DNA of 64,000 nt from Gemmatimonadales bacterium. Its GTDB lineage: Bacteria > Gemmatimonadota > Gemmatimonadetes > Gemmatimonadales > GWC2-71-9. Below, piece by piece: positions 31,740-50,464 of this stretch. The notes under the pieces were generated by a model, which was given only the letters and a program-made list of their open reading frames with translations, was not told the DNA's origin and did no database searches. Positions within the stretch are counted from its first letter, which is position 1, and each line of letters opens with the position of its first letter. Where the stretch lies: positions 4,339-68,338 of the forward strand of contig JBAUHI010000076.1 in assembly GCA_049680185.1 (NCBI GenBank). The letters are read 5' to 3'. The translations under genes were made by a program, and so were the position numbers.

Positions 31740-32939
31740 TCAGATCAGCCCCAGTTTGCGGCCTGCCTTCCGGAAGGCCTCCAGGGCGCGGTCAAGATGC
31801 TCTCGGGTGTGCGCTGCCGAGACTTGGCAACGCACCCGGGCCTGTCCTTGCGGCACGACCGGGAATCCGAATCCGGTCACGAACACGCCGGCATCGAGCA
31901 GGGCCTCGCTCATCTGGATCGCCTTGGCCGTTTCACCGAGGATCACGGGGATGATCGGCGTCTCGCCGGCGAGCGGCTTGAACCCGAGGGCCAGGAGTTG
32001 ATCGCGGAAGTAGGTCGCGTTGGCGCGGAGCGTCTCGACCCGGGCCGGTTCGCGCTCCAGGACCTCGATGCTCCTGAGCGCACTCGCCGCGACCGTCGGC
32101 GGCAGCGCGTTGGAGAAGAGCTGCGGCCGGGCCCGTTGGGTGAGAAAGTCGCAGGCGGCCTCGCTCGCGGCGACGAACCCGCCGGCGGCCCCGCCCAGTG
32201 CCTTGCCGAGCGTGGACGTGATGATCGGCACCTCGCCCAACAGTCCGAAATGCTCGGCGGTCCCGCGGCCGGTCCGCCCGAGGACGCCGGTCGCGTGCGA
32301 GTCGTCGAGCATCAGTACCGCACCCCGCTTGCGGCACACCTCCAGGAGGTCGGGAAGCTTGCAGATGGCCCCTTCCATCGAAAAGACGCCGTCGCTGATC
32401 ACCAGCTTGACCCGGCGGTCCGTGGCGGCGGCGAGCTTCTGATCGAGGTCGGAGAGGTCTCCGTGGGCGTAGACGCCGGTCTGGCACTTGGTGATCGCCT
32501 TGGCCAGCCGGATGCCGTCGATGATCGACGCGTGGTTGAGCTGGTCGGAGAGCACCAGGTCCTGCTCCGTGAGCAGCGTGCCGGGCACTGCTTCATTCGC
32601 ATTCCAGCAGCTGACGAAGCTGAGCGATGCCGGCGTGTCGACCAACCGGGCGCAGGCGCGCTCGAGATCACGGTGGACGGTGAATGTCCCGCAGATGAAT
32701 CGCACGGAGGCAGTGCCGGCCCCGAATCGGTCCAGTGCCTCGTGGCCCGCCCGGATCACCTCGGGATGATCGGAGAGCCCGAGATAGTTGTTGGACGACA
32801 GCACCACCACCTCGCCATGCCCTTCCATCCGGACCACCGGTCCCTGGCGGCCCTCGAGGTAGTTGAGCCGCTTGTACACCCCATCCCGCTTGAACCCCTC
32901 GAGGTCGGAGTTGATGCGGTCGTCGAGGGTGCTGTTCAT
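31740..32939 (-). CDS. kbl: 2-amino-3-ketobutyrate CoA ligase (glycine C-acetyltransferase)
   Basis: ATG at 32939 overlaps the tdh stop (ATGA). MNSTLDDRINSDLEGFKRDGVYKRLNYLEG..., NNYLGLS, DDSHATGVLG, TSTLGKALGG (PLP lysine). Confidence 0.92.
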   Translation of the reverse strand: MNSTLDDRINSDLEGFKRDGVYKRLNYLEGRQGPVVRMEGHGEVVVLSSNNYLGLSDHPEVIRAGHEALDRFGAGTASVRFICGTFTVHRDLERACARLVDTPASLSFVSCWNANEAVPGTLLTEQDLVLSDQLNHASIIDGIRLAKAITKCQTGVYAHGDLSDLDQKLAAATDRRVKLVISDGVFSMEGAICKLPDLLEVCRKRGAVLMLDDSHATGVLGRTGRGTAEHFGLLGEVPIITSTLGKALGGAAGGFVAASEAACDFLTQRARPQLFSNALPPTVAASALRSIEVLEREPARVETLRANATYFRDQLLALGFKPLAGETPIIPVILGETAKAIQMSEALLDAGVFVTGFGFPVVPQGQARVRCQVSAAHTREHLDRALEAFRKAGRKLGLI

Positions 32940-33976
32940 CGCGCGATCTCCAGGATGACCTTGCCCGCTTGTCCGTTCTTGATGAGCCCGATGGCCTCGG
33001 CGATACCCTCCATCGGGAAGCGGTGGGTCACAACGGGTCGAGGGTCGAACTTGCCGCTCTGGAGCAGCGTGAACATCTGCTGCCACGTCTGGTACATCTT
33101 CCGTCCGGTGACGCCATAGAGCGTCAGTCCCTTGAAGATGATGTCGCGGGCAAAGTCGACTTCGGTGGTCTTCGCTGGCGTGCCCAGGAAGTTGATCCGG
33201 CCGCCGGGACGGATCGATGCGAACGCCTGTTGGTGGCCGGCCGGGTGCCCGCTCATCTCGCAGACGAGGTCGGCGCCACCAGTGCCGGAGAGCTCGCGCA
33301 CCCGTGCCGGGACGTCGTCCGTGGCAGGGTCAAGGGTCACGTCCGCTCCCATGGTCTTGGCCAGCGCGCGCCGCACCGGATTGAAGTCGCTCGCAATGAC
33401 GACCGACGCGCCGGCGGCCCTGGCGACCCCGACCGCGAAGCAGCCGATCGGTCCGCAGCCGAGCACGAAGACCGAGCTTCCCGCGACCATCCCCTCGAGT
33501 GCGGTGTGGACGGCGTTGCCGATGGGGTCCATGATGGCGCCGATCTCGGTGGGGATCCCGTCGAGCTTCATCACGTTCGACGCCGGCATCGCGATGTACT
33601 CGGCGAACGCGCCGTCCCGATCGACGCCGATGATCTGGGTGCGCTCGCAGACGTGATACTGGTTGAAGCGGCAGGGCCGGCAATGTCCGCACACGATGTG
33701 GCCCTCGGCAGTGACCAGGTCACCCACCGCCAGGAGGCCGGCCGCGCGGGCCTCGCTGCCCATCTCCGTCACCGTGCCGGCGAACTCGTGGCCGATCACC
33801 ACCGGGGGCTTGAGCCGACGCGATGCCCACGAATCCCATTCCCATATATGCAGGTCGGTGCCGCACACACCGGCATGCGCGACCTTGATCAGGACGTCCG
33901 CGGTACCGATCCGGGGGACCGGCACGTCCTTCACGACCATCCCGGGCCCGGCGGACTCCTTGACGAGCGCTCGCAT
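32936..33976 (-). CDS. tdh: L-threonine 3-dehydrogenase
   Basis: Zn-ADH motifs GHEFAGTV, GHIVCGHCRPCR, VLGCGPIGCFAVG. Classic tdh-kbl pairing. Confidence 0.92.
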   Translation of the reverse strand: MRALVKESAGPGMVVKDVPVPRIGTADVLIKVAHAGVCGTDLHIWEWDSWASRRLKPPVVIGHEFAGTVTEMGSEARAAGLLAVGDLVTAEGHIVCGHCRPCRFNQYHVCERTQIIGVDRDGAFAEYIAMPASNVMKLDGIPTEIGAIMDPIGNAVHTALEGMVAGSSVFVLGCGPIGCFAVGVARAAGASVVIASDFNPVRRALAKTMGADVTLDPATDDVPARVRELSGTGGADLVCEMSGHPAGHQQAFASIRPGGRINFLGTPAKTTEVDFARDIIFKGLTLYGVTGRKMYQTWQQMFTLLQSGKFDPRPVVTHRFPMEGIAEAIGLIKNGQAGKVILEIAR

Positions 33977-34018
33977 CGCGATTCCAGTGAAGTGGACCGG
34001 CGGGAATATAGAACGAAA

Positions 34019-34045
34019 GACCCCCGAGCGGACTGCTCGGGGGTC
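34019..34045 (-). terminator. Perfect 11-bp GC-rich hairpin downstream of the 55-aa mini-ORF
   Basis: GACCCCCGAGC-GGACT-GCTCGGGGGTC. On the minus strand it is followed by TCTTTCGTTCTATATT, 21 nt after the mini-ORF stop. Confidence 0.6.
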
Positions 34046-34066
34046 GCGATACGTCAGGTCGTCAGA

Positions 34067-34234
34067 TCAGGCGGCGTGATCGACCGGCATCTGCTCGTGC
34101 CAGTGTTCGGTCGTCTCATCTTCGTCGGCAGCCCACATGTAGGCCCAGATCGCGGCCGGCTTGCGGCGCTCTCCACCGTCGTGGATGATGATCCCGATCG
34201 GTTCCTGCTCGGCGGCGATGGCAGCGGCGTTCAC
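34067..34234 (-). CDS. 55-aa hypothetical acidic mini-protein
   Basis: Own translation from GTG 34234: VNAAAIAAEQEPIGIIIHDGGERRKPAAIWAYMWAADEDETTEHWHEQMPVDHAA. GAGGG 8 nt upstream, strong hairpin downstream. Below the track length cutoff. Confidence 0.45.
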   Translation of the reverse strand: MNAAAIAAEQEPIGIIIHDGGERRKPAAIWAYMWAADEDETTEHWHEQMPVDHAA

Positions 34235-34327
34235 GATGATACCCTCGATGGATGATGGACCTCGCCCTTCCTACTGCAGGGCCCATGCCATTAAGGATAC
34301 CGTGCTAAGCTATTGCAGCTATTGCAC

Positions 34328-35182
34328 TTAATCGCGCGCATCGAGCATGGTGTGTTGGAGTGACTCAGACACATCAGAGTCGTTCTGACACAGAGGAGGG
34401 AGGAGGATGGCGCTTCCTTCCACACTTGGAGAATGCCGCCACCCCGGGTACCAGGACCGGAGTTCCGAGATCCGTCCGCTCGGACCGAGGAGCACGTGCG
34501 CCCCGATCTCGGCGATGCGATCCTGCAGCGCCACGACGAATGACCGCAGGTCGGTCTCGCCCAGCGCACCCACTTCGCCGGCATCGAGCACCACGATCTG
34601 GGTGGGACGTTCCGCCGGCGGGAGCCACGGCCGCCCCACCTGGACCACGAACGCCTCGAGTGCTCCCGCGAGCGACTCGTCGACGGCCAGGCGCTCCACC
34701 CGTTCCACCACTGGCAGCGAGCCGGCGAGAAAGGTGACCTCGACGTCGTGGGCGGCGAGCAGGGGCGCCAGCGCCTCGGTGCCGGACCCGATCAGGAGCG
34801 CGTGGTCCGCCGGCTCGCAGCGGGAAAGGAGCGTCGCCACCGGGTGGGTATCCGCGACGCCCCAGTACGCCGGCTCACGCTGCGCGGCCGCGCGTTTCCC
34901 GTAGCGTTGCTTCCACGTCTTGAAGGTCGGCAGCTTCAGACGCTTACTGATGAGCCGGTCGACACAGTCGAGCATCATCACTTCGGTGAGGAAGAGCTGG
35001 CCCTCGGTGCTGGCACCCTGGACCGCGAGCGCCTCCTCCGCGAGCCGCATCAGGTCCTGGCGGGAGCGGGAGTTCTTGTATGCCTCGATCCGGTGCACCA
35101 GGAATTCCTGGTAGCGCTGCTGTGGGGACGCCGTGGCCCGGCGCCGTCCCCGTCGGCGCACCAACTGGGCCTCGGTCAGCAT
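34328..35182 (-). CDS. Hypothetical protein (284 aa)
   Basis: ATG at 35182 (MLTEAQLVRRRGRRR...) overlaps the stop of the upstream CDF gene by 7 nt. The upstream part of track ORF 34328..35506 overlaps the CDF gene and is not credible. No recognised domain. Confidence 0.6.
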   Translation of the reverse strand: MLTEAQLVRRRGRRRATASPQQRYQEFLVHRIEAYKNSRSRQDLMRLAEEALAVQGASTEGQLFLTEVMMLDCVDRLISKRLKLPTFKTWKQRYGKRAAAQREPAYWGVADTHPVATLLSRCEPADHALLIGSGTEALAPLLAAHDVEVTFLAGSLPVVERVERLAVDESLAGALEAFVVQVGRPWLPPAERPTQIVVLDAGEVGALGETDLRSFVVALQDRIAEIGAHVLLGPSGRISELRSWYPGWRHSPSVEGSAILLPPLCQNDSDVSESLQHTMLDARD

Positions 35183-36051
35183 GGTTCGACGTGCACGAGG
35201 ACGTGCTGCAAGGGGAATTCCGCGCCGAGCGCCGCCTCGACCGCGTCGGCGATGCGGTGGCCGGCGTCGACCGACGCGGCGCCTTCGACGGCGATGGTCA
35301 CCTCGGCAAAGTGCAGCTCGGACGCCGTGCGCGAGCGGATCCCGTAGGCGCGCTGAACACCGGGCACGGCCTCGGCGACACGGCGGAGGTCGCCCTCGGG
35401 GAACGCCGCCTGATCGAGGAGGGTGGGCATCGAACGCTTCACGATCTCGTAGCCGACGTGCGCGACCAGTCCGGCCACGACCACGGCCAGGAGCGGGTCG
35501 GCCCACATGTATCCGGCGCGCGCGAGCAGCAGGCCGCCGATGACCGCCAGGGTGATCCAGACGTCAGAACGGGTGTGCTCCGCATCCGCCAGGAGGATCT
35601 CGCTGCCGAGCCGCACGGCCGCACGCCGCTCGTACCATGCGACCCAGATGTTCACGCCCAGCGTCATCGTCAGGAGACCACCCTCCAGGGGGCCGAATGC
35701 GATCGGGTGACCACCCTGTGCCAGATGGACCGCGGCCCCTCGGAGCAGCTCGAAGATGGTCACGGAGAGGAACACCACGATGCTCAAGGCCCCGAGCGTC
35801 TCGAACTTGGCGTGGCCGTAGGGATGGTCGGCGTCGGGCCCGCGGGACGCAAAGTGTGTGATGGCAAGTCCGAAGACGTTGTTCATCACATCGACCGACG
35901 AGTGGAGCACATCCCCGAAGACGGCGAGGGACCCGGTGGCGATCCCGACCCCGATCTTGATGGCGACGACCAGCAGGTTGGCCCAGAGCAGGGCGCCAAG
36001 GACCTGGCGCACCTGCCGGTCGCGGTCCACGGCCGGGCTGTTCGGGGGCAT
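35176..36051 (-). CDS. Cation diffusion facilitator family transporter
   Basis: Six-TM pattern with HSSVDVMNNV and LLADAEHTRSDVW metal-site motifs, C-terminal cytoplasmic domain ...AEVTIAVEG. Confidence 0.88.
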   Translation of the reverse strand: MPPNSPAVDRDRQVRQVLGALLWANLLVVAIKIGVGIATGSLAVFGDVLHSSVDVMNNVFGLAITHFASRGPDADHPYGHAKFETLGALSIVVFLSVTIFELLRGAAVHLAQGGHPIAFGPLEGGLLTMTLGVNIWVAWYERRAAVRLGSEILLADAEHTRSDVWITLAVIGGLLLARAGYMWADPLLAVVVAGLVAHVGYEIVKRSMPTLLDQAAFPEGDLRRVAEAVPGVQRAYGIRSRTASELHFAEVTIAVEGAASVDAGHRIADAVEAALGAEFPLQHVLVHVEPC

Positions 36052-36096
36052 CCTGTAAGCTCGTTACGAATGGTGGGCACGGTCAATAGAGGCGGG

Positions 36097-37275
36097 TCAA
36101 TCGGCGCGCAGCGCCACCCCCTTGAGGTACCCCGTTTCCGGGATGGTCACGACCTCGGGGTGGTCGATATCCTGGCCCAGGTGCCGCAGCAGCGTGAGCC
36201 GGCGTCCGCTATCCGCCGCTGCCGCGCCGATCATCTCGACGAAGTCGGCTCGGCGGAGGTGGAACGAACACGATGCCGTCACCAGCACTCCGCCGGGGGC
36301 CAGTATCCGCATAGCCCGGAGGTTGATCTCGTGGTACCCGCGGAGGGCTCCGGGGAGCGCGGCCTTCGACTTGGCAAAGGCGGGAGGATCGACCACCACG
36401 AGGTCGAAACGGCGCCGGGTCCGTTCGTAGCCACGCAGCAGCTCGAAGGCGTCCCCCTCGGTCCACTCGATGTTCTGGTACCCGTTGAGTGTGGCGTTCT
36501 CCGCGCCCCGCGCGAGGGCCTCGCCGCTCGAGTCGATCGCCGTGACCCGCGCGGCCCGGCGGGCCAGGTGCAAGGCGAACGACCCGTGATAGCTGAAGCA
36601 GTCCAGCGCTTCGCCACCGGTCCGGAGGAGCTCCTTCGCAATGACGCGATTGGCGCGCTGGTCGAGGAAGGCGCCGGTCTTCTGGCCGGTCCACGGCGCC
36701 GCCAGGAAGCGGACCCCCGCCTCCACGACTTCGATCGGATCCGGCACTGCACCGTGCACCAGCTCGACCTGTTCCTTGAGACCCTCGTGCCGGCGCACCC
36801 CGGCGTCGTTACGAAGGAGGACCCCTTCCGCGCCGGTCACCTCGACGATCGCCGCGATCACGTCGTCCCGCATCGTCTCCAGCCCGGCCGAGAGGAGCTG
36901 GGCCACCACCCAGCGGTCGTAGCGGTCGACGATGAGGCTCGGCAGGCCGTCGCCCTCGCCGTGGACCACCCGGTATGCGGTGGAGTCGATGCCGGCGCGC
37001 CGCACGAACGCGGCTCCGATCCGGGCCGCCCACCAAGCGCGGTCGAGCGGCCGTTCGGTCGCTTCGATCAATCGAAGGCGGATCTCGGAACGGGGCGAAT
37101 AGAGCGCCTGCCCCAGGAACTTGCCGCGCCGGTCGCGGACCGAGACGACCCCGGCCCCGGCACTTGGCTCGCCCAGCACATCGCTGCGATAGATCCACGG
37201 ATGGCCGCCGGCCCAGCGGGCCGCCCCCTTGGCGCTCACCACCGCGGCCGGTCGGTCACTCCGCCGGACGGTCAT
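36097..37275 (-). CDS. Class I SAM-dependent rRNA methyltransferase, RlmI-like (PUA + MTase)
   Basis: HPWIYRSDV (PUA-type N-terminus), TGAFLDQR, LDCFSYHGSFALH, DLVVVDPPAFAKSK. Confidence 0.85.
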   Translation of the reverse strand: MTVRRSDRPAAVVSAKGAARWAGGHPWIYRSDVLGEPSAGAGVVSVRDRRGKFLGQALYSPRSEIRLRLIEATERPLDRAWWAARIGAAFVRRAGIDSTAYRVVHGEGDGLPSLIVDRYDRWVVAQLLSAGLETMRDDVIAAIVEVTGAEGVLLRNDAGVRRHEGLKEQVELVHGAVPDPIEVVEAGVRFLAAPWTGQKTGAFLDQRANRVIAKELLRTGGEALDCFSYHGSFALHLARRAARVTAIDSSGEALARGAENATLNGYQNIEWTEGDAFELLRGYERTRRRFDLVVVDPPAFAKSKAALPGALRGYHEINLRAMRILAPGGVLVTASCSFHLRRADFVEMIGAAAADSGRRLTLLRHLGQDIDHPEVVTIPETGYLKGVALRAD

Positions 37276-37290
37276 TGCATAGCTTTCAGC

Positions 37291-37920
37291 ATGGACAGCA
37301 ATCTAGCCCGGCCGCTTCGGCTCCTCCTCATTGCCGACCACGAATTGTTCCGAGGGCGTGATCCGTTGCTGCTCTGCCGCGAGGCGGTCGAGGGCGGGGT
37401 CACGGCGGTACAACTTCGCTGGAAGGGCGGGACACCGCGGGAACAGGTGGAGCTGGCGCGCCGGCTGGTGGCGGGGCTGGTGGTACCGGTCTTCGTCAAC
37501 GACCGGCCCGACGTGGCGCTCGCGGCGGGGTGTGCCGGAGTCCACCTTGGCGCGGACGACCTGCCGCTCACCCTCGCGCGCCGGATCGCACCATCGGGGT
37601 TCGTGCTCGGGGTGAGCGTGGGGAGCGACACCGAGGCCGATGGCGCGAACGGTGCCTCGTACGCGGGTGTCGGGCCATGGCGGACGACCCGGACCAAGCT
37701 CGATGCCGGTGCGGCGCTGGGCGCCACTGCGGCCGCACGGCTGATCGCGCGGATCCGACCGGTCCCGGCCCTCGTGATCGGCGGCGTTCGTCCGGAGGAT
37801 GTTCCGGGCATCGTCGCCGCAGGTGGGGTCGGTGCGGCGGTCGGTGCAGGGATCCTGGGTCAGCCGGATGTCCGCCGAGCGGCAGCGGCGTATCGGGAAG
37901 CGGAGCGCGGGATCGTCTAG
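37291..37920 (+). CDS. thiE: Thiamine-phosphate synthase
   Basis: In-frame ATG at 37291 within the spurious 946-aa track ORF. LLLIADHE..., VTAVQLRWK, VFVNDRPDVALAAGCAGVHLG, GVGPW..TRTK, VIGGV. Confidence 0.85.
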   Translation: MDSNLARPLRLLLIADHELFRGRDPLLLCREAVEGGVTAVQLRWKGGTPREQVELARRLVAGLVVPVFVNDRPDVALAAGCAGVHLGADDLPLTLARRIAPSGFVLGVSVGSDTEADGANGASYAGVGPWRTTRTKLDAGAALGATAAARLIARIRPVPALVIGGVRPEDVPGIVAAGGVGAAVGAGILGQPDVRRAAAAYREAERGIV

Positions 37921-38891
37921 CGGTGACGGCCGCGGATGCGGCGGATGGTGCGGACGTGTTCCGCGTAGGTCGTGCTGAACTGGTGCCCGCCGGTCGAATC
38001 GGCCACGAAATAGAGATACGGCACGGTGGCGGGGTGGACGGCGGCCCAGAGACTCTGGATGCCGGGGGAGGAGATCGGTCCCGGCGGCAGGCCCGGGTGG
38101 AGATAGGTGTTGTACGGCGAGGGGAATCCGTAGTCCTTGTTGAACAGCCGTTTCTTCCGGGTGCCACGCTTGAGTTCGATGGCGTATTGCACCGTCGGGT
38201 CGGCCTGCAAGTTCATCCCCTGCAGCAGGCGGTTGGTGTACACTCCCGCGATGATGGCGCGCTCCTCGGGCTTGCGTGCTTCCCCTTCCACGATGCTGGC
38301 GAGCGTCACCGCTTGGCGCCGGGTCATCCCCCGGCGGGCCAGGACCTGGTCCCATCCAGGCTGCCACTCGGCGAGGAATTGACGGCCCATCATCCGCACC
38401 AGGCCGCGCGCCGTGGTGCCCACCGGAACGGAGTAGGTCTCGGGGAGGAGATAGCCTTCGAAGGTCGGTCCATCGAGGTCGAGGGCGCGCAGTTCGGTGG
38501 TGTCGCGGGCGGCGGCGAGGAACGAGTCGGCGGCGATGTGGAGCTGGTCGGCGGCAAGGGCAGCCACTTCCCCGAGCGTGAGTCCTTCCGGCACCGTGAG
38601 GCGATCCGCGGCGATGCGGCCCTGGCTCAGGAGGTCGAGCACCGTCCATGCGGACCGTCCGCGGGGGAGGTCGTAGGTCCCGGCCTGGACGTGATGGTCA
38701 ACGCCGCGGAGGCGGCCGAGGATGCGGAACCAGGTCGGGTGGGTGACGACGCCATGTGCGGCGAGCGAGTCCGTGACGCGGGCGAACGCGATGCCGGCGG
38801 GGATCGTCACGCGTTCGCGCGGCGCCTGGGCGGGGCCGCCGCCACAGGCCGCCACGAGGAGGGCGGTGGCGATCCACCCCTGGGCCTTCAT
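37917..38891 (-). CDS. mltG: Endolytic murein transglycosylase MltG (YceG family)
   Basis: Lipoprotein-like N-terminus ALLVAACGG. LASIVEGEA, YNTYLHPGLPPGPISSPG (YceG signature). Confidence 0.88.
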   Translation of the reverse strand: MKAQGWIATALLVAACGGGPAQAPRERVTIPAGIAFARVTDSLAAHGVVTHPTWFRILGRLRGVDHHVQAGTYDLPRGRSAWTVLDLLSQGRIAADRLTVPEGLTLGEVAALAADQLHIAADSFLAAARDTTELRALDLDGPTFEGYLLPETYSVPVGTTARGLVRMMGRQFLAEWQPGWDQVLARRGMTRRQAVTLASIVEGEARKPEERAIIAGVYTNRLLQGMNLQADPTVQYAIELKRGTRKKRLFNKDYGFPSPYNTYLHPGLPPGPISSPGIQSLWAAVHPATVPYLYFVADSTGGHQFSTTYAEHVRTIRRIRGRHR

Positions 38892-39334
38892 CGCGTGCTC
38901 CGGCGGCTTTCGAGGAAGTGTTGGAGGAGGATGGCAGCGGCGAGCGCGTCGACATCTTCCTTGCGTCCGCGGGTGGAACCGCCCTGTTCCCGGATGGCAC
39001 CGAGGGCGCGCGCCGTGCTCATCCGCTCATCCCACCACGCCACCGGAAGCCCGGTGCGTCGGGCCACCGTCGCGCCCATCTCGCGGGCGGCCGCAGCACT
39101 GGGCCCTTCGTCGCCGTTGGGGGTGAGGGGGAGGCCGATCACGATGCCGACCGGCGCGTGAAGGGCCACGAGTTCGAGGAAACGCGGCATCGGGAAGCGC
39201 TTGCCGACCCGGCGGACGAGGGTCTCCAGCGGCGAGGCCAGGATCTGGGTCTCGTCGGAGAGGGCGAGTCCCAGGCGCACTTCGCCCCAGTCGATGGCGA
39301 TGAGGCGACCGGGGCGGGGGAGGTCGGAGTTCAT
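38888..39334 (-). CDS. ruvX: Putative pre-16S rRNA nuclease / Holliday junction resolvase-like YqgF
   Basis: RLIAIDWGEVRLGLALSDE...VIGLPLTPNG...DERMST. ATGA overlap with mltG. Confidence 0.88.
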   Translation of the reverse strand: MNSDLPRPGRLIAIDWGEVRLGLALSDETQILASPLETLVRRVGKRFPMPRFLELVALHAPVGIVIGLPLTPNGDEGPSAAAAREMGATVARRTGLPVAWWDERMSTARALGAIREQGGSTRGRKEDVDALAAAILLQHFLESRRSTR

Positions 39335-39346
39335 CGAGGGGTCGAT

Positions 39347-39433
39347 GGTGAACGGTCAACAGTGAACGGTGAAAGGGAACTGGGCTCCACGGGTGGCGAG
39401 TCCCAGTTCACCGTTGACCCTTCACCGTTCACC
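39347..39433. repeat. Heptamer-array inverted repeat element, copy D
   Basis: GGTGAACGG TCAACAG TGAACGG TGAAAGG GAACTGGG -16 nt- CCCAGTTCA CCGTTGA CCCTTCA CCGTTCA CC. It occupies the whole rho-ruvX intergenic gap. Confidence 0.85.
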
Positions 39434-39435
39434 TT

Positions 39436-40683
39436 TCATTGCGCCATCGTGGCGAAGAACTCCTTGTTGTTCTTCGTCCGCTTCATCCGCTCGAGGAGGA
39501 ACTCCAGGGCCTCGACCGGCGGCATGTCGGCCAGGAAGTTCCGCAGCAGGTACACCCGGTTGAGCTCGTCCTTGTCCATCAGGAGCTCTTCCTTGCGGGT
39601 GCTGGTGCGCTGGATGTCGATGGCGGGGTAGATGCGGCGGTCGGCCAGGCGCCGGTCGAGGACCAGTTCCATGTTGCCGGTGCCCTTGAACTCCTCGAAG
39701 ATCACCTCGTCCATCCGGCTGCCGGTGTCGATGAGCGCCGTCGCGATGATCGTGAGCGAGCCGCCCTTGTCGATGTTGCGCGCGGCGCCGAAGAATCGCT
39801 TGGGCTTCTGCAACGCGTTGGCGTCCACGCCGCCCGAGAGGATCTTGCCGGAATGCGGTACCACCACATTGTGCGCCCGTGCCAGCCGGGTGATCGAGTC
39901 GAGGAGGATGACGACGTCCCGACCGTGCTCGACCAGCCGCTTCGACTTCTCGATGACCATGTCGGCCACCTGCACGTGGCGGTCGGCGGGCTCGTCGAAG
40001 GTCGAGGAGATGACCTCGGCCTTCACATTCTCCTGCATGTCGGTCACTTCCTCGGGCCGCTCGTCGATGAGCAGGACGATGAGCGTGATCTCGGGGTGAT
40101 TCTCGCTGATGGCATTGGCGAGCTTCTGCATCAGGATCGTCTTGCCGGCCTTCGGCGGCGCTACGATCAGGCCGCGCTGCCCCTTGCCGATGGGCGAGAG
40201 AAGATCCACCACCCGCATCGACAGGTCCTGGGTCTTCCGCTCCAGGCTGATCCGTTCATCCGGATAGCGCGGCTTCAGGTTGTCGAACGCGATCCGATGC
40301 TTGGTCTTCTCGGGCTCCTCGTAGTTGACGCTCTCGACCTTGAGGAGTGCCAGGTACCGCTCGCCTTCCTTCGGCGGCCGGACCTGTCCCATGACGGTAT
40401 CGCCGGTGCGAAGGTCGAAGCGCTTGATCTGGCTCGGGCTGACGTAGATGTCGTCGGGCCCGTAGAGGTAGTTCCAGTCCTGGCTGCGAAGGAAGCCGTA
40501 GCCCTCGGGGAGGATCTCGAGCACCCCCTCGCCGCGAATGACCGTGTCCGAGTCGAGCAGGGTCTGCTCGATGCGGAAGATCAGGTCCTGCTTCCTGAGC
40601 CCCGAGTAATTGAGGATGTTGAGCTGCTCGGCCAACGCGTGCAGCTCGGCGACGGACTTTTGCTTGAGTTCTGCGATATCCAC
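39436..40683 (-). CDS. rho: Transcription termination factor Rho
   Basis: EGYGFLRS (RNA-binding domain), [16 protein letters not shown] (Walker A), [10 protein letters not shown], classic C-terminus. GTG start at 40683. Confidence 0.95.
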
Positions 40684-40996
40684 TGGGCGGATGCTCCGCT
40701 GGGCGGGGGCCGGCGCGGGGGCACCGGTGCCACTGGCTTCAGGTGTGGGGGAACGGCAGGTCGGAAACAGTGTCGGTCCGCAACGGGCGCGGCGCCGGGA
40801 TCAGGCTCTATGGGATTGGGAAGGATGGTGAGTCACTGGATGCGGCCCTAAGGTAGGATGCCGCCCCGCCTCCGTCAAGCGACCGGCGGTTGGTCCGGTG
40901 TCCCACCCTATTGCCTAAGTCCAAGGGTCTCCCTAGCTTAGGGCTGTACCCCATGTCCGGCCGGTGTCCGGTCCTGCCCCAGGTCAAGGACGGTCG

Positions 40997-41287
40997 ATGC
41001 CCGCGCAACCAGCCCGACAACCCCTCCGCGAACCCCGCGCACCGTCCGTCCACGAACTCCCGCCGTTCCGGTTTGATGGCCTGACCATCGATGTCCGCGC
41101 CACCGTCCTGCGGGGCGAGGATGGCGTGTGGCGCGGTCGGCTCCACTTCCTGGGTGGCGTGGATGGGCCCGACGCCGAACGGCAGACCGCCGAGATCTTT
41201 TGCGCGGCGACGGAGAACGAGTTCTGGGATTCGGTCCGCGGACTCGGCCCCCACCACGTGCGCGACCTCTACCGCTCCCTTCTTTAG
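40997..41287 (+). CDS. Hypothetical protein (96 aa)
   Basis: ATG at 40997 with AAGGA 7 nt upstream. ...FRFDGLTIDVRATVLRGEDGVWRGRLHFLGG...FWDSVRGLGPHHVRDLYRSLL. Globular-looking composition, no recognised domain. Confidence 0.55.
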   Translation: MPAQPARQPLREPRAPSVHELPPFRFDGLTIDVRATVLRGEDGVWRGRLHFLGGVDGPDAERQTAEIFCAATENEFWDSVRGLGPHHVRDLYRSLL

Positions 41288-41302
41288 CCGGGCGGAACCG
41301 GA

Positions 41303-41485
41303 ATGACCGACGCCGAACGCCTCCACACTCTCCGCCACGACATCGCCAACCCCCTGTCCGCACTCCTCGCCGAAGCGCAACTGCTCTTGCTCAACGACAG
41401 CAAGCTCGATCCTGAAGTGGCGGGAAGCGTGCGGGAGATCGAGAAGCTTGCCCTGCGGATGCGCGCATTGCTTCGGGATATCTGA
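41303..41485 (+). CDS. Stand-alone HisKA/DHp-like domain protein (60 aa)
   Basis: MTDAERLHTLRHDIANPLSALLAEAQLLLLNDSKLDPEVAGSVREIEKLALRMRALLRDI. H-box-like LRHDIANPLSAL followed by a second helix. No sensor or ATPase domain. 15 nt downstream of the 96-aa ORF. Confidence 0.6.
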   Translation: MTDAERLHTLRHDIANPLSALLAEAQLLLLNDSKLDPEVAGSVREIEKLALRMRALLRDI

Positions 41486-41594
41486 GCGTTGAGCCGCCCG
41501 AGTCCGGCGCGGAGGGATCCAGTGCGCTGGCCCGCTCCCGGTATCCGCGGCCGGCCCCGAACACCGGGATGGATCTGGCCGGGCCGCCGGACCC

Positions 41595-43334
41595 TCAGGC
41601 GTCAGGGACGTCCCGGCGGTGGCGCCAACCGTTCGTGAGGTAGAGCACCAGGAAGACGGCACTGAGCCCGCTGATCAGGAGTCGCTCGGTCATCCCCGCA
41701 TCACTCGCCGACGCCAATCCCTCGATCGTTCCCGCTACCACCAACAGGACCACGGTCGCACCGACCATCGGGATCGCACCCCGGCCGGCCAGCCTCACCG
41801 CCTCGCCGCGCGAGTGATCGCCCGGCGCCACGAGTGCGAACCCGAGCTGGAAGCCCGCTGCGCCCGCGACCGCGATGGCGAAGAGTTCCAGTATGCCGTG
41901 GCCGATGATGAACGCCATCAGGTAGCCGAGCACACCAAGGTTCGCGAAATGGGCCGCCGAGATCCCCAGCGTGGCGCCGTTGGTGGCAAGCAGAAAGAGC
42001 GACCCCACTCCCAGGAAGATGCCGCCGGCAAAACAGGCGAACGCGACCCGGACGTTGTTGCCGATGATGGCCGCGGCGGTCGCGGGGCGGTCCTCCGGGG
42101 CGGCCTCGTAGTACGTGAGCCCGCGATCGATCCGCGTCTTGGCGCTCGCTGCGCGTTCAAGCATCAGGTCAGGGAGCAGTTCGTACGCCAGCCCGGGGCG
42201 CTCCCGGACGATGGTCCACCCAACGGCCGCCGGCACGAAGAGGAACACCAGCGCCAGGAGCACGGTGCGCCAGGCGTTCACCACCGCCGCCGGACAGCGC
42301 CGCCACGCGAGTTCCGTGAGTCGGGTGAGCGAGCGGGGTGGCTCGCGGTAGAGCGCATTGTGGCCGGCCGCGACCAGCCGTTCCAGTCGGTCAAGAGTCG
42401 CTTCCGGCGCATTGTAGGTCCGCGCGCGGGCCAGGTCGGAGGAGACCTCGCGATAGCGGGCGGCAAAGTCGATGAGGTCGGGTGCGCTGAACGTGTCCAG
42501 TCCGCGGGAGTTCGCCGCCCGCGCCAGCACCTCGAACGCATCCCAGCGGTCCCCTTGTCGCTCGGCGAGCTGGAATGCCGTCCGCTCCTCGGCATCGCCG
42601 CCGCCGCTCGCCCGGGCGGCCCGCTCCGCATCATACAGTCCGCTCAGGAACGTGGCGTCATCGGAGGGACGCTCGGGCCAGCGCGCCGCGAACCGGGCGG
42701 CGAGCGCCACACGTATCCGTGCGCCTGCCGCCGGATCGAGATCCTTGACGCGTTCTTGAAATGACTCGAGCCACGCGTACTCGGCGGGTTCGAGCCGGGC
42801 CAGCGCGGTGGTGGTCGTGGCGGGAACGTGGGGACGATGGCGTGCATCGAAGGGGCGGTCACGGACCACCAGCGTGCCGGCGGCCAGGTCGCCGAGGCGC
42901 CGGGCGCGCGGATGGAAGAAGAGGAAAAGGAATCCGGTCACGTAGGGTGGTGGGAAGAAATCCGCCAGCCGCACGATGTTCCGGACCACGACGGGGCCAA
43001 ATCCGGCGGGATGTCCGGTGATGCGCACGACCCGGATCCCCACCAGTCGCTTGCCGGGAGTCTGCCCCTGCCACCACGATTCGAACCCGATGAAATAGCC
43101 GAGGGCCACCACCGCCGACAGCGCGATGACTCCGGCGCTGGCCAGGGACCCGAGCGGGAACACGCGCAGCGCCGAGAGGCCGATCAACGCCGCGATGAGG
43201 ATGCCGTGGTCGATCGCGGATGCCAGGCTGCGGGAGCCGATCCGGGCCGCCTCGTACCCGAGGGTCACCGATTCCGGCGTTTCGACCTGATGCCGGGAGC
43301 CTAAGTCCACGCGGGAGATGGGGGCGCGCGCCAT
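41595..43334 (-). CDS. Membrane protein: N-terminal RDD domain fused to SpoIIM-like (DUF95) domain
   Basis: ATG at 43334. RDD part: SAIDHGILIA...GQTPGKRLVGIRVV...RNIVRLADFF...GDLAAGTLVV. C-terminal part: multi-TM with IGHGILELFAIAVAGAAG, typical of SpoIIM/DUF95. Confidence 0.7.
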   Translation of the reverse strand: MARAPISRVDLGSRHQVETPESVTLGYEAARIGSRSLASAIDHGILIAALIGLSALRVFPLGSLASAGVIALSAVVALGYFIGFESWWQGQTPGKRLVGIRVVRITGHPAGFGPVVVRNIVRLADFFPPPYVTGFLFLFFHPRARRLGDLAAGTLVVRDRPFDARHRPHVPATTTTALARLEPAEYAWLESFQERVKDLDPAAGARIRVALAARFAARWPERPSDDATFLSGLYDAERAARASGGGDAEERTAFQLAERQGDRWDAFEVLARAANSRGLDTFSAPDLIDFAARYREVSSDLARARTYNAPEATLDRLERLVAAGHNALYREPPRSLTRLTELAWRRCPAAVVNAWRTVLLALVFLFVPAAVGWTIVRERPGLAYELLPDLMLERAASAKTRIDRGLTYYEAAPEDRPATAAAIIGNNVRVAFACFAGGIFLGVGSLFLLATNGATLGISAAHFANLGVLGYLMAFIIGHGILELFAIAVAGAAGFQLGFALVAPGDHSRGEAVRLAGRGAIPMVGATVVLLVVAGTIEGLASASDAGMTERLLISGLSAVFLVLYLTNGWRHRRDVPDA

Positions 43335-43439
43335 CGGGGAATGATAGCGTTCGCGGGGCTTGCGGGTGGGCGCTGGTGGCAGCAACGTCCCCCAGTGGTG
43401 CGCCCGTCCTTGGACCATGCCCCCGAACCACTACTGGAG

Positions 43440-44357
43440 ATGCCGATGGCCGACCTTGCGATGCGTCCATTGTCGGTAGGTGAGATCCTGGATCGGTCAT
43501 TCGCGTTGCTCCGTGCCAGGTTCGGTGCGCTCTTCCTGGTGGGGCTCGCGTGTTTCGTGATCCCGATCTTCCTCGCCGTCGGCAGCCTGGCGGACTTTTC
43601 CCAGCTCTCCCAGCAGGCGACCGTCGCGCAACCGGCGCAGATGGACCTCGCACTCGGGATGCTCGGGAGACTCTTCTGGGTCGCGTTGGTGGCGTTCTTT
43701 GGATTCATCGTTGCCCGTGGGGCGTGGGTCCATCTCGTATCCGAGACCATTCTGGGACGCGACGCCGGCGCGGGGGTCGCGCTCCGCCGCGGGCTGTCCA
43801 CGGCGCTGCCGATGGCCGGCCTCAGCTTCCTCGAGGGTGCGATCTTCTTCGGCATCTACCTCGGGCTCGCACTGCCGACCTTGCTGGTCGTCTCCACGGT
43901 GTTCCACGGCACGCCGCTGGCCGCGGTCGCGCTGGTCACCGTCGTCGTGCTCGGCGGGATCGTTCTGGCCGCGTGGGTCTACGCCGGGCTCTATGTCGCG
44001 GCGCCGGCGCTGGTCCTGGACCGACCCACCGGTGTGATGCACGCGCTCTCGCACTCGTGGGCGCTCAGCCTTGGCCGCCGCGGCGCCATTCTCTCGATCA
44101 TCTCCCTGCTCGCGGTCCTCGCGCTGCTCGTCCAGCTTGCGGTGGCCCTTGGATTGGGCACATTCGGGAGCACCATCGGTGCGGGTCCCCAGGTGCTGGG
44201 CCCGATGGCACTCTTGAGCTTCGGCTTCACGGCACTCTTCCAGATCGTGCTGGCCGTCCTCGGCTACGTCATCCAAACGGTGATGTACTACGACCTGCGC
44301 GTCCGGAAGGAGGGCCTGGATCTGGAACTGATGGCTGGCGCACTGGGGCACGACTGA
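43440..44357 (+). CDS. Polytopic membrane protein (GlpQ-membrane-domain/DUF-type), hypothetical
   Basis: LSVGEILDRSFALLRARFGALF..., six or more hydrophobic segments, ends YYDLRVRKEGLDLE. The start (ATG 43440 or 43446) is uncertain. Confidence 0.6.
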   Translation: MPMADLAMRPLSVGEILDRSFALLRARFGALFLVGLACFVIPIFLAVGSLADFSQLSQQATVAQPAQMDLALGMLGRLFWVALVAFFGFIVARGAWVHLVSETILGRDAGAGVALRRGLSTALPMAGLSFLEGAIFFGIYLGLALPTLLVVSTVFHGTPLAAVALVTVVVLGGIVLAAWVYAGLYVAAPALVLDRPTGVMHALSHSWALSLGRRGAILSIISLLAVLALLVQLAVALGLGTFGSTIGAGPQVLGPMALLSFGFTALFQIVLAVLGYVIQTVMYYDLRVRKEGLDLELMAGALGHD

Positions 44358-44987
44358 TTGGGACCGCACCCCGTCACCGCGGACTCGCTCCGCACGGTGC
44401 TTGATTCGGTCTTTGCCAACGCGGCGTACGCGTGGCACGCCGTGCCCGCCAGCGTCGAACCCGTCTGGATCCGATGGCTTCGCGACGTGATCAAGTGGGT
44501 GGCAGGGCTGTGGCAACGCCTGACGGGACACGGCGGCGTCGGGTCGTCGGCGATCCCGTGGGTGTTGATGGGCATCGGCATCCTCCTGCTGGTGCACGGA
44601 CTATTCCGGATCGCATCGTCGGCGCGGGTGGCGCACGAAGCGGCGCTCGCCCATGGCGCCCTGCCCGGTACGCGCCACGATGACTCGTGGTTCCGGCAGC
44701 GTGCCGATGCGCTCGCCGCGGAGGGTCGCTTTGCCGAGGCGATGGTGGCGGCCTTTCACGGCATGATGTGGCGGCTGGACCAGCGCGGAATGGTGGCCCA
44801 CCACCCGAGCCGCACGCCGCGCGAGCTGGCCTGCGACGCCAAGGTCGGCGCGTCCGACGGCCGCACATTGGCGGTCCTGGTGGGACAGCTGTATGCTGGC
44901 GCCTTCGGTGGCCTGCCGATCGATCCGGCCCAGTACACTGCCTGGCTGATAACCCTCGACCAGCTGCGCGATGCGCCCGCGCGCTGA
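44358..44987 (+). CDS. DUF4129-like membrane-anchored protein
   Basis: TTG start abutting the upstream stop. One TM (WVLMGIGILLLVHGLF), then ...HHPSRTPRELACDA...GQLYAGAFGG, resembling the DUF4129 C-terminal pattern. Confidence 0.55.
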   Translation: MGPHPVTADSLRTVLDSVFANAAYAWHAVPASVEPVWIRWLRDVIKWVAGLWQRLTGHGGVGSSAIPWVLMGIGILLLVHGLFRIASSARVAHEAALAHGALPGTRHDDSWFRQRADALAAEGRFAEAMVAAFHGMMWRLDQRGMVAHHPSRTPRELACDAKVGASDGRTLAVLVGQLYAGAFGGLPIDPAQYTAWLITLDQLRDAPAR

Positions 44988-46197
44988 GCTGGGCCTGGCC
45001 CTGGCGCTCGGCGCGGTCGCGGCGGCGGGGCTCGCCGTCCACGCGTTCACTACCCCCGGTGCCCGTGCACTCGATCGCCGGCGCAGCACCTACCTGACCG
45101 GACCCACGGGGGCCCGGGCGTGGGTCGATGCCCTCGACCGTCTTGGCGTGACCACCGAGCGCTGGCGCCGACCCGTGGAGGTGCTGCCGACCCGTTACCC
45201 TCCGCACCAGATCCCGCTCTACGCCGTGCTCGAACCGGCGGTGCCGCTCTCATTCTTCGAGGCGCTGCAACTGGAACGATGGAGCCAGCGGACCGGCGAC
45301 CTGCTGCTGGCCGGCGCGGGGACCGACGCGGCGATGCGCTGCTTCGGGTGGGAGGTGACACCGGTCGAGCTTCGAGGGACCGCCGCCGACCTCAAGGCCG
45401 CAGGTCGGGTGGGCCAAGTGGCGGTGTCCCTCACCCAGGTCCACGCGGTGCTTACTCCTACCCGCACCGACACCGCTGATCGTCCGTCCAGTGCGGCCGA
45501 CCTTGGCGTGCTGCGCTGCCGGTCGCCGAAGCCGCTCGGGGTCGATACGTTGCTGAGGACGCCGAGCGGCGAGCCGGTGGCGGTCCGAGTGCGGGTCGAT
45601 CCCGCGACGCGGATCACCTTGGTGGCCGATGGACTGCTCTTCGCGAATGACGCCATGCGACGGTCCGACGCCGGGGAATTCTCGCTGGCGCTGGTGGTGC
45701 CGAGGTATCGTACGGTATTGGTGGATGAGTACCATCAAGGGTACAGCAGCGGGGGAACGCTCACCGGAGCGGTGCTGGCTTGGAGCGCGGAGTCGCCGTG
45801 GGGATGGGCGGCCTGGCAACTGGTGGTCGTCGGGCTCCTGGCGCTCCTGGTCGCGGCAGTGCGATTTGGCCCGGTGCTGCAAGACAGTGACCAGGAACGC
45901 CGCTCGCCGATGGAGCACGTCCACGCACTGGCCACGGCACTCGGCTCAGCGCGCGGACACGATGTCGCCGCGAGGCTGATGGTGCAGGGCCTGCAGCGAC
46001 GGCTGTCGGGTGAGCACCAGCCCCAGCGGCGATCGGTCGAGGGATGGCTGGCGCAGTTGGCGGAGCGAGTGCGCTCGCCTCGGGCCCGCGCCGCCGTCAA
46101 GGAATTGCAGTCGCTCATCGACCCGCCCCAGCCAGCCGATGCCGTGCTGCGTGCGGCCTACGCCGTGGAGGATGTGTGGCAGGAATTGAAGCGCTGA
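44971..46197 (+). CDS. DUF4350-like protein
   Basis: N-terminal TM, ...LVADGLLFANDAMRRSDAGEFSLALV...VLVDEYHQGY, late TM WQLVVVGLLALLVAAV. Its position between DUF4129 and MoxR matches the known conserved cluster. Confidence 0.55.
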   Translation: MRPRAELGLALALGAVAAAGLAVHAFTTPGARALDRRRSTYLTGPTGARAWVDALDRLGVTTERWRRPVEVLPTRYPPHQIPLYAVLEPAVPLSFFEALQLERWSQRTGDLLLAGAGTDAAMRCFGWEVTPVELRGTAADLKAAGRVGQVAVSLTQVHAVLTPTRTDTADRPSSAADLGVLRCRSPKPLGVDTLLRTPSGEPVAVRVRVDPATRITLVADGLLFANDAMRRSDAGEFSLALVVPRYRTVLVDEYHQGYSSGGTLTGAVLAWSAESPWGWAAWQLVVVGLLALLVAAVRFGPVLQDSDQERRSPMEHVHALATALGSARGHDVAARLMVQGLQRRLSGEHQPQRRSVEGWLAQLAERVRSPRARAAVKELQSLIDPPQPADAVLRAAYAVEDVWQELKR

Positions 46198-47156
46198 CGC
46201 CGGACGCTGCCCGCGGCCTGTCGGAGGTGGCGCGCCGGATCGAGCGAGAGGTGGCGACGGTCGTCCTCGGACAGCCGGAGGCCGGGCGCGACATCGTGGT
46301 GACGCTGATGGCTCGCGGGCACGTGTTGCTCGAAGGCGTGCCAGGCACCGCCAAGACCCTCCTGGTCCGGGCGCTGGCCCGCGCGGTCGGGGTCGGCTTC
46401 CGCCGGATCCAGTTCACTCCGGACCTGATGCCGTCGGACATCACGGGCGTCAGTCTCCTCACCGGGCAGGGGCAGTTCACCTTCCGGGCCGGCCCGATCT
46501 TCTCCGACTTTGTCCTTGCCGACGAGATCAACCGCGCGCCTGCGAAGACGCAGGCGGCACTGCTGGAGGCGATGCAGGAACGCAGTGTCACCATCGACGG
46601 CGAGTCCCATCCGCTGCCGGTGCCATTCACGGTGTTCGCGACGCAGAACCCGGTGGAATTCGAGGGGACCTATCCGCTGCCCGAAGCGGAGCTCGATCGG
46701 TTCCTGGTCAAGGTGCTGGTGGGTTATCCCGATGCCACCGCCGAACAGGGGATCCTGGCCCGGGTGCTCGGCGGATTCGAGTCCGACGATCCGTCCAGCT
46801 TCGGCACCAAGGCGGTGCTCGATGCCAAAGGGCTGGCCGAATTGCGGGCCGCGACCCGTGCGGTCCGGGCCGAACCGGCTGTGACGCAGTATGTGACCGC
46901 ACTCGTGCGTGCCACTCGCGGGGCGCCCTCGCTCTCGATGGGCGCCTCACCCCGGGCCACGGTATCACTCCTCAAGGCGAGCCAGGCCGCCGCACTCCTC
47001 GAGGGACGCGAATACGTGACGCCCGATGACGTGAAGGCGATGGCCCCGGCGGTGCTCCGGCATCGAGTGGTGGTGGCACCGGAGCTCGACCTCGAGGGGC
47101 TTTCGCCCGATAGCGCGCTGGAGGGGATCCTGCGGTCCGTTGAGGTACCGCGCTGA
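46176..47156 (+). CDS. MoxR-family AAA+ ATPase
   Basis: VLLEGVPGTAKTLLVRALA (Walker A), LADEINRAPAKTQAALLEAMQE (Walker B/sensor), ATQNPVEFEGTYPLPEAELDRF. The start is inferred at the in-frame GTG 46176. Confidence 0.88.
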   Translation: MAGIEALTPDAARGLSEVARRIEREVATVVLGQPEAGRDIVVTLMARGHVLLEGVPGTAKTLLVRALARAVGVGFRRIQFTPDLMPSDITGVSLLTGQGQFTFRAGPIFSDFVLADEINRAPAKTQAALLEAMQERSVTIDGESHPLPVPFTVFATQNPVEFEGTYPLPEAELDRFLVKVLVGYPDATAEQGILARVLGGFESDDPSSFGTKAVLDAKGLAELRAATRAVRAEPAVTQYVTALVRATRGAPSLSMGASPRATVSLLKASQAAALLEGREYVTPDDVKAMAPAVLRHRVVVAPELDLEGLSPDSALEGILRSVEVPR

Positions 47157-50461: not shown

Positions 50462-50464
50462 GGG

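Follow-up and report, generated by a model that had tools for sequence, protein, structure and literature searches.

We analyzed a 64-kb stretch of contig JBAUHI010000076.1 from a Gemmatimonadales bacterium (the whole stretch is referred to as the window) that carries intergenic palindromes built from tandem heptamers of the GTGAACG type. Four such palindromes, 72 to 89 nt each, lie at 785-856 (copy A), 5840-5928 (copy B), 39347-39433 (copy D), and 50465-50544 (copy E). Their arms consist of 3 to 6 GT[G/A/C]AAC[G/A] heptamers, and the arrays face each other across a GC-rich center that differs in every copy (spacer of 17 to 30 nt).

Copy A is located inside a ruvC-ruvA-(57-aa open reading frame [ORF])-ruvB string, 3 nt past the stop of the small ORF and 13 nt short of the ruvB ATG (771, minus strand). 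Copy B separates two divergent genes, one for a GT9 heptosyltransferase (4803-5816, minus) and one for a PglZ-domain response regulator (5942-7513, plus). Copy D starts 2 nt past the stop codon of rho (39436-39438, minus) and ends 12 nt short of the ruvX ATG (39334, minus). Copy E lies between a DUF58 gene, whose stop ends at 50461, and a convergent, minus-strand DUF4031-like gene, whose stop (50541-50543) is the TGA within the outermost (last) unit of the copy itself. The gaps that hold copies A, B, D, and E measure 88, 125, 101, and 79 nt, and each is nearly filled by its copy.

An initial annotation of this DNA had described four full copies filling almost the whole gap between genes in tandem, divergent, or convergent orientation, with no U-tract and no target-site duplication. 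Direct reading recovered all four copies at their positions, the gene orientations were as described, and no duplication was detected. No T-run was visible at any of the four copies, and a terminator scan of window positions 1-20000 flagged neither copy A nor copy B. In that region, 2 canonical hairpin-plus-T-run sites were found compared to 5.9 in shuffled sequence, both of them in coding sequence and neither at an element. Since canonical sites were scarce there, the ends of genes in this genome may be marked by hairpins that lack a U-tract.

Units of the window copies

The arms had also been described as arrays of a 7-nt unit rather than as one conserved hairpin, and this held, as both number and order of units vary among the copies and their orthologues. 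Copy A begins with the forward units GTGAAGG (785-791), GTGAAGG (792-798), GTGAACA (799-805), and GTAAGCG (806-812), followed by its center (813-832) and the inverted units CGTTGAC (833-839), TGTTTGC (840-846), and CGTTCAC (847-853). The forward array of copy B (5841-5868) reads GTGAACG, GTAAACG, GGCCACG, and GTGAACG, with units starting at 5841, 5848, 5855, and 5862; its center spans 5869-5885, and six inverted units occupy 5886-5927. For copy D, the forward array (39348-39382) consists of GTGAACG (39348), GTCAACA (39355), GTGAACG (39362), GTGAAAG (39369), and GGAACTG (39376), and four inverted units follow the center, namely, AGTTCAC (39405), CGTTGAC (39412), CCTTCAC (39419), and CGTTCAC (39426-39432). 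Finally, copy E carries GTGAACG (50466), GTCAACG (50473), and GTGAACG (50480) in its forward array (50466-50486), a center at 50487-50516, and the inverted units CGTTCAC (50517), CGTTCAC (50524), CCTTTAC (50531), and CGTTCAC (50538-50544).

The two-unit consensus GTGAACGGTGAACGG, allowing at most 3 mismatches, matched the window 32 times compared to 2.77 +/- 1.72 times in dinucleotide shuffles (maximum of 8), and 26 of the 32 matches fell within the four full copies. When the inverted repeats found within 80 nt were ranked by length across the window, copies D, B, and E took the first three places, and Tandem Repeats Finder (TRF) reported a period of 7 at all four copies. Copy B was found in identical form in the Logan contig L001 (SRR28011631), a 4-kb contig identical to window positions 5373-9499.

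One unit and one polarity across about 100 copies

After merging, the sequences analyzed (pattern-selected loci, the window, and relatives) contained 100 GTGAACG-type palindromes. The unit logo, in percent, was G99, T95, G80/A14/C5, A97, A94, C93, and G80/A15, with GTAAACG and GTGAACA as the commonest variants. Arms most often held four units, element length had a median of 76 bp (range, 45 to 151), and successive cores were spaced 7 nt apart in 455 of 502 cases. All 100 merged elements had the order (GTGAACG)n-center-(CGTTCAC)n, and a lenient regular expression found 93 elements in this order compared to none in the reverse. The same polarity was seen in the window copies and in second copies within loci, i.e., in those that fell outside the pattern selection.

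The flanks extend the stem by a few bases, with 41 to 53% A at positions -6 to -3 and 39 to 52% T at +3 to +6; these A-rich and T-rich flanks may derive from outer units that have decayed or represent a rudimentary U-tract. Target-site duplications of 3 to 7 nt were found at 0 to 1 of 94 elements, equal to the shuffled expectation. No conserved termini were seen beyond the units, and a GTAG-like 5' tetranucleotide was absent from the flank logos. Unit variants were shared much more between the two arms of an element than between arms taken from different elements (60 compared to 29.9 +/- 4.3). The idea that the arms are strict mirror images was nevertheless set aside, as most of the variant sharing was at the level of the element or the genome and the unit numbers of the two arms were uncorrelated (Spearman 0.05).

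The elements abut stop codons and favor gene 3' ends

High-GC loci contributed 93 GTGAACG-type elements, none of them intragenic; 5 were at the edge of a locus, and the other 88 were flanked on either side by called genes. The 88 flanked elements comprised 60 in co-directional, 20 in convergent, and 8 in divergent spacers. The numbers expected were 68.8, 9.1, and 10.0, respectively, when calculated from gene pairs (p = 7e-4) and 52.2, 5.6, and 30.1 when calculated from intergenic bases (p = 2e-12). The excess in convergent spacers was thus about 2-fold on the basis of gene pairs and 3.6-fold on the basis of intergenic sequence, and divergent spacers were depleted.

The siting relative to stop codons was sharper still. 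For 100 adjacent stop codons, 48 were within the element and 39 lay 0 to 11 nt from its edge (87% together). The stop distances peaked at -4, -11, and -18, which places the end of the gene at the TGA belonging to unit 1, 2, or 3; with a period of 7 nt, G-TGA-ACG arrays offer a stop in all three reading frames. In co-directional pairs, the median distance was 1.5 nt from stop to element and 23 nt from element to next start. The next start was at most 30 nt downstream in 37 of the 60 co-directional cases, and many copies must therefore be transcribed through. Copies outside Gemmatimonadales were stop-adjacent in 16 of 19 cases compared to 13% for random placement when raw ORFs were used; this test was discounted, since any open frame entering a TGA-rich arm must stop there, which makes it partly circular.

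As a separate observation on the high-GC loci, Shine-Dalgarno motifs were rare, with GGAGG in 6% and GGAG in 21% of the regions from -18 to -4 (relative to called ATG starts, which are approximate).

The family is concentrated in Gemmatimonadota and recurs in distant phyla

About 185,000 species-representative genomes were scanned with the pattern GTGAACGG-N(0-14)-GTGAACGG-N(5-35)-CCGTTCAC, for which we estimated about 2 chance matches under uniform composition. The pattern matched at least 117 loci. Among the 117 matches listed, 69 (about 59%) were labelled Gemmatimonadales, Gemmatimonadota, or similar, 9 more came from two unlabelled bins, and the remaining 39 included unmistakable full copies outside Gemmatimonadota. 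The matches listed included copies from Arcicella and Cytophagales (36 to 41% GC), Bacteroidales, Anaerolineae, and Armatimonadetes, a Chloroflexia copy with 4+7 perfect units, copies with up to 9 units in several Betaproteobacteria metagenome-assembled genomes (MAGs), and a copy in one complete Luteibacter genome. The initial annotation had named a lack of further copies, or of intergenic bias, as grounds for doubting the family; further copies were found, and they were intergenic and biased toward gene 3' ends.

The core GT[G/A]AAC[G/A]G, in one polarity and abutting stops, was present in at least five phyla at loci ranging from 36% to 70% GC. It also occurs with a period of 8, as GTAAACGG and GTGAACGR. 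A Bacteroidetes MAG (L024, 219-338) carries eight copies of GTAAACGG in the same palindromic layout, and octamer versions built from GTGAACGA/GTGAACGG were found in MAG CAMDRT01, labelled Bordetella parapertussis (L053, 5168-5261; L114, 5637-5718 and 7187-7275). Because the same core, polarity, and stop abutment recur in at least five phyla and are kept at period 8, the heptamer could be read by a conserved component. We think it rather unlikely that the GTGAACG heptamer itself is read by such a conserved cellular component, or that a dedicated, undescribed activity adds arrays symmetrically to the two flanks of a hairpin already in place. A candidate reader could be the 3' tail of 16S rRNA, with GGUGA complementing UCACC and the 3' arm mimicking the tail; in lineages that use little Shine-Dalgarno, this pairing could retain a ribosome that has just terminated and pass it over the hairpin base to the start codon that follows.

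The spread of the family also bears on whether it is a non-autonomous mobile element, of the miniature inverted-repeat transposable element (MITE) or REPIN kind, copied by a RAYT or an IS200/IS605-type transposase. High copy number would fit such an origin, uniform polarity is consistent with common descent, and the elements are patchy both across phyla and among close relatives. In two Gemmatimonadales relatives with 96 to 97% identical Rho, no GTGAACG palindrome was present in 21 kb each, and one of these (L202) had a single two-unit reverse run, which argues that the expansion is lineage-specific. However, the centers are specific to each locus, there are neither target-site duplications of 3 to 7 nt nor conserved termini beyond the units, and the unit numbers of the arms vary independently. 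No transposase gene was noticed beside the copies examined, and the 5' GTAG that is a hallmark of repetitive extragenic palindromic (REP) sequences is missing. Furthermore, 2.9 million viral contigs gave only two poor matches, so that the elements are essentially absent there. Carriage by phages was rejected on these grounds, and a mobile element of the MITE or REPIN kind seems very unlikely to us.

Whole units are gained and lost at orthologous sites

The organism was placed by its Rho homologues, as the Rho of the window is about 100% identical to proteins that NCBI lists as Rho of "Gemmatimonadales bacterium" MAGs. An exact-sequence lookup of the same protein gave no match, and a tblastn search with the window proteins against the pattern-selected loci returned no orthologues. 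Contig DASSGV010000087.1 (GCA_035693225.1; L201) is syntenic with window positions 30751-50683 at 87.9% nucleotide identity. Besides the window, L201 and two metagenome contigs with Rho 95 to 96% identical carry the element between rho and ruvX (copy D). These orthologous elements had four-unit arms throughout, with different unit variants and centers that could barely be aligned. The element was absent from L121-L123 (Rho 87 to 92% identical), L202, and L203, in which rho and ruvX are 19 to 54 nt apart or overlap. At the same gene pair, we noted that protein P0004, from a JGI contig of a relative with 97% identical Rho, is a single ORF of 587 aa in which a Rho and a RuvX domain are both recognized by Pfam, so that the two genes are called as one there.

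For copy E, the window version (4+3 units) and the L201 version (2+4 units) are separated by clean 14-nt and 7-nt indels within conserved flanks. The corresponding site in L203, past the DUF58 gene at about 1540-1585, is occupied by a plain hairpin, ACAACGGGCCGCC-AAGT-GGCGGCCCGTTGT, which could be either the seed or a remnant of a heptamer palindrome; if arrays were laid on hairpin flanks by an undescribed activity, it would be the seed state. Part of a decayed relic in the window (28325-28338, CAACGGGCCCGTTG) resembles this hairpin. Each arm thus gains and loses whole 7-nt units independently of the other, and the centers turn over fast. These are the dynamics of a simple sequence repeat and not of a transposed unit.

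The same architecture is built from other heptamers

Using TRF and a purpose-built detector, we found that the layout of array, center, and inverted array is also built from other heptamers in the same genomes, with CGAGTCA, AGTCGCG, GCTATGG, GCTATCC, AGCTCCT, AGGACTG, and GTAGGTC as units, and from TAACTGA, AGACATT, and AGAAATT in other phyla. In the pattern-selected loci and the window, 129 palindromic array pairs had a period of 7, compared to 0 to 10 for periods 5, 6, and 8 to 11. A set of rho-anchored loci from many phyla (402 kb), assembled regardless of repeats, had 8 pairs of period 7, none of periods 8 to 11, 2 of period 5, and 3 of period 6. By our count, roughly 15 unselected GTGAACG copies stand against 16 copies with other units.

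Palindromes of other units started 0 to 7 nt past the upstream stop in 9 of 10 cases. A stop in the 5' arm as a rule for every heptamer family was rejected, since, as judged by eye, about half of the other-unit cases have it in the 5' arm and the rest in the 3' arm; the 5'-arm rule holds for GTGAACG only. Two palindromes, at 3083-3163 in L078 (CGAGTCA) and at 3561-3645 in L041 (AGTCATC/GACTGAC), lie directly upstream of rpsS (MARSVKKGPF), apparently between rplB and rpsS in the ribosomal S10 operon of two MAGs. Directly past the rho stop, a GTGATAG-type element was seen by eye in L151, and GTCATTT-type and GTGAACG-type elements were seen in L195 and L120.

The window has further arrays of its own. 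An array of about six TATCGGC/TATCAGC units in one arm lies at 1062-1107, between ruvA and the 57-aa ORF, showing that this genome carries other heptamer families. In a cluster of seven tRNA genes on the minus strand (62745-63729), tRNA-Arg(ACG) and tRNA-Val(GAC) are separated by a 14-mer array of AGAGCTC/AGAGTCT (about 4.4 copies, 63050-63129), which is another heptamer family. Long arrays were also noted elsewhere, with 20 copies of GAGGTGC and a downstream inverted CACCTCG array in L028 (1297-1589) and 25 copies of TCTATAT in a Chloroflexia MAG (L042, 845-1017).

These findings bear on the main rival to our preferred reading, a neutral or selfish origin, by which slippage-grown arrays, with arms matched by template switching in quasi-palindromes, are tolerated past stop codons, grow until they reach coding sequence or a ribosome-binding region, and serve no cellular function. 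According to PMC4679880 and PMC4692102, Mrazek et al. (2007) found heptanucleotides to be the most abundant long simple sequence repeats in most genomes and proposed that polymerase slippage is favored at 7 nt, which would supply a route for such growth. This origin is in line with several observations: one architecture is shared by many unrelated heptamers within a genome, orthologous sites gain and lose elements rapidly, whole units are inserted or deleted, sense and antisense folding show no asymmetry (see below), and the elements fill their spacers, with edges 0 to 11 nt from stops and, at the median, 23 nt from starts. On the other hand, a single unit accounts for about half of the palindromes and always has one polarity, which slippage from random seeds does not predict; the same core appears in distant phyla, even at period 8; and the enrichment in convergent spacers (about 2-fold and 3.6-fold) goes beyond mere tolerance. 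On balance we regard a purely neutral origin as possible though doubtful.

Stable folding as RNA and as DNA

For RNA of the window copies, the more stable strand gave folding energies of -43 to -54 kcal/mol and the other strand -25.7 to -50.5 kcal/mol, with z scores of -2.7 to -6.3 over both strands of the four copies. Single-stranded DNA folds reached -19 to -27 kcal/mol (z, -3.6 to -4.9). The fold prediction suggested in the initial annotation thus yields stable hairpins for both nucleic acids, and per nucleotide the copies are among the most stable structures of any intergenic spacer in the window. Across the family, the median RNA folding energy was -51 kcal/mol. In co-directional contexts, the sense strand folded better in 33 cases and the antisense strand in 27 (p = 0.12).

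Such strand symmetry, with no bias toward the sense strand, and the stability of the DNA hairpin are also compatible with a DNA-level element, in which the arrays or an extruded cruciform would bind gyrase or a nucleoid or partition-like protein and act as a topological barrier, as proposed for the bacterial interspersed mosaic elements (BIMEs) of Escherichia coli. The elements are enriched between convergent genes, where positive supercoils collide, and the GTRAACG core, kept across phyla and at periods 7 and 8, suggests sequence recognition. However, a spacing of 7 bp would place successive sites on different faces of B-DNA, dissimilar heptamers show the same architecture and stop-codon siting, and exact abutment to stops fits more naturally with something that concerns transcripts or translation. 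No candidate protein was found, and we consider a DNA-level element unlikely.

Searched against Rfam, only seven tRNAs in the window passed the gathering threshold, and the element itself gave only generic miRNA-precursor hairpin matches of 15 to 26 bits against thresholds of 67 to 168. CRISPR, riboswitch, and small-RNA readings were ruled out, as the units are too short, spacers are absent, and Rfam matches are absent.

Other features of the window

A relic containing a perfect palindrome had been reported at 28303-28336. The relic is present and extends to 28341 (28303-28341, GTGAACGACGGGAACGGCCGCAACGGGCCCGTTG); it reads GTGAACG ACGGGAACGG CCGCAACGGGCCCGTTG and lies, decayed, in a 584-nt divergent spacer. 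The one-armed, GTGAA-rich stretch reported at 15047-15090, in a convergent spacer, fared less well. It is GTGA-rich, though weakly, and its periodicity is poor, so that its membership in the family is doubtful. The 57-aa ORF next to copy A (860-1033, minus), between ruvA and ruvB, encodes a zinc-ribbon-like protein with two CxxC pairs (MPIVAVTAEWICTRCGTT...CVTCRARH...) and had no Pfam match. Two further spacers fold strongly and had no Rfam match at the gathering threshold, namely, a GC-rich spacer of 313 nt upstream of rho (40684-40996, -153 kcal/mol) and a spacer of 234 nt at 31506-31739 (-96 kcal/mol).

Relation to known repeats

The initial annotation had recognized no described family, and none emerged from our searches of Rfam families and paper text, nor was a REP or MITE catalogue entry found. 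The repeat strings had no match in the text of the searchable literature, searches on Gemmatimonas repeats were likewise empty, and a broader literature search on STRR hairpins returned only unrelated frameshifting papers.

The REPs of Enterobacteria and Pseudomonas are single conserved palindromes of 20 to 40 nt with a GTAG-type 5' end, linked to RAYTs and near-identical within a genome. According to work attributed to Liang, Rudd and Deutscher in 2015, a REP within 15 nt of a stop codon reportedly affects translation of the upstream gene, and REPs are said to protect mRNA 3' ends. Like REP, BIME, and REPIN sequences, the GTGAACG elements are abundant, intergenic, imperfect palindromes downstream of genes and in operons, and rare between divergent genes. 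The likeness to REP/BIME elements and to STRR heptamers that had been proposed is therefore apt as far as siting goes (intergenic, on gene 3' flanks, and inside operons). Unlike REPs and REPINs, with their conserved 20- to 40-nt palindrome and GTAG-like 5' end, they have arms that are variable arrays and centers that are unique. Unique centers, together with duplications at the shuffled level, also set them apart from MITEs, which have a conserved body and target-site duplications. With intrinsic terminators they share a GC-rich hairpin just past stops, enrichment between convergent genes, and mildly A- and T-rich flanks, but they lack a U-tract, are only modestly enriched in T at +3 to +6, and have stems several times longer. 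In addition, many copies precede the next cistron of an operon by 0 to 30 nt, and efficient termination there would silence that cistron.

Heptamer repeats with similar siting are known from several groups. Cyanobacterial STRR were reportedly described by Mazel et al. in 1990 as dispersed, intergenic tandem heptanucleotides, mainly in direct arrays. They share the dispersed intergenic heptamers with the present family and differ in phylum, GC content, and the predominance of direct arrays. The Calothrix STRR3 unit CAACAGT, equivalent to GTCAACA, is one mismatch away from the GTGAACG unit and occurs literally in copy D (39355-39361).

TAACTGA arrays are common to Beggiatoaceae, Cyanobacteria, and Bacteroidetes, and both their transfer route and their function are unexplained (MacGregor 2015, PMC4679880). 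Like the GTGAACG family, they consist of one heptamer in short intergenic arrays in distant phyla, with stop codons in the unit. However, in Beggiatoaceae they are direct, with one inverted set among 170, and lie just upstream of starts, whereas GTGAACG elements abut stops (PMC4679880). A TAACTGA palindrome was present in our Arcicella locus L005 (2405-2526).

The closest parallel in layout is GGGAATC in Xanthomonas (Rehm et al. 2015, PMC4692102). According to that paper, each genome has about 185 arrays with a mode of four units and 70 to 75 inverted stem-loop pairs; 89 to 93% of the arrays are intergenic and nearer the upstream ORF, 16% are convergent, and 7 to 8% are divergent; length and sequence vary between close species; and the G-rich unit has been proposed to form G-quadruplexes. 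The array-inverted array architecture is therefore already known from PMC4692102, which also describes the same four-unit intergenic mode, inverted pairing, 3'-end siting, and variability that we see for GTGAACG. The two families differ in unit and phylum, and nearly all GTGAACG arrays are palindromic compared to a minority for GGGAATC. Stop overlap, strict polarity, and cross-phylum spread are features of GTGAACG that the parts of PMC4692102 consulted do not report for GGGAATC. We conclude that the GTGAACG elements belong to the heptamer class of bacterial simple sequence repeats and are palindromic forms of it.

Discussion

Our preferred reading, which we hold at about even confidence, is that the elements play a REP-like role as a stable RNA hairpin on the 3' flank of genes, with arrays that have grown by slippage. 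The element would be transcribed with the mRNA and, at the 3' boundary of the cistron that precedes it, would fold into a very stable hairpin lacking a U-tract. Inside operons, such a hairpin may act as a barrier to 3' exonucleases and as a processing point, as REP does in E. coli, and between convergent genes it may, despite having no U-tract, terminate transcription from both sides weakly or in part. With its many stops, the 5' arm would allow the array to grow right up to the coding sequence with no extension of the protein. Growth would proceed by replication slippage of heptamers, and exchange or selection would keep the arms similar.

Several points weigh against a REP-like role on RNA. 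Most loci were chosen by a search pattern that itself imposes unit and order, and genes were called with a home-made codon-usage caller trained on the window, so that start positions are approximate (flanking genes were checked against Pfam). Eight of the 88 flanked elements, including window copy B, lie between divergent genes with no gene 3' end next to them, and the 3'-end bias could stem purely from selection against insertions in promoter regions. The lack of a folding advantage for the sense strand gives no sign of selection specifically on RNA. Loss of the element at orthologous sites in genomes with Rho 87 to 97% identical argues against an indispensable function at any one site. A mirrored order of variants between the arms was weakly supported (60 compared to 52.5 +/- 3.6 after permutation, about p = 0.03), and the RNA-level role itself is one that we infer.

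The elements likely break or misjoin metagenome assemblies, gene calls lose precision at their 3' ends where a stop codon sits inside the repeat, and the elements could serve as typing markers. Heptamers have been known since the work of 2007 to be the most over-represented long simple sequence repeats in many bacterial genomes and are still without an accepted origin or function. The GTGAACG family is an unusually clean case among them, being abundant and of fixed polarity, with a sharp stop-codon rule, visible turnover of units, and a presence in several phyla. Gemmatimonadota therefore allow us to ask whether such repeats stand in for U-tract terminators in GC-rich genomes with little Shine-Dalgarno use, whether they tune operons in the manner of REPs, and where the 7-nt periodicity comes from.

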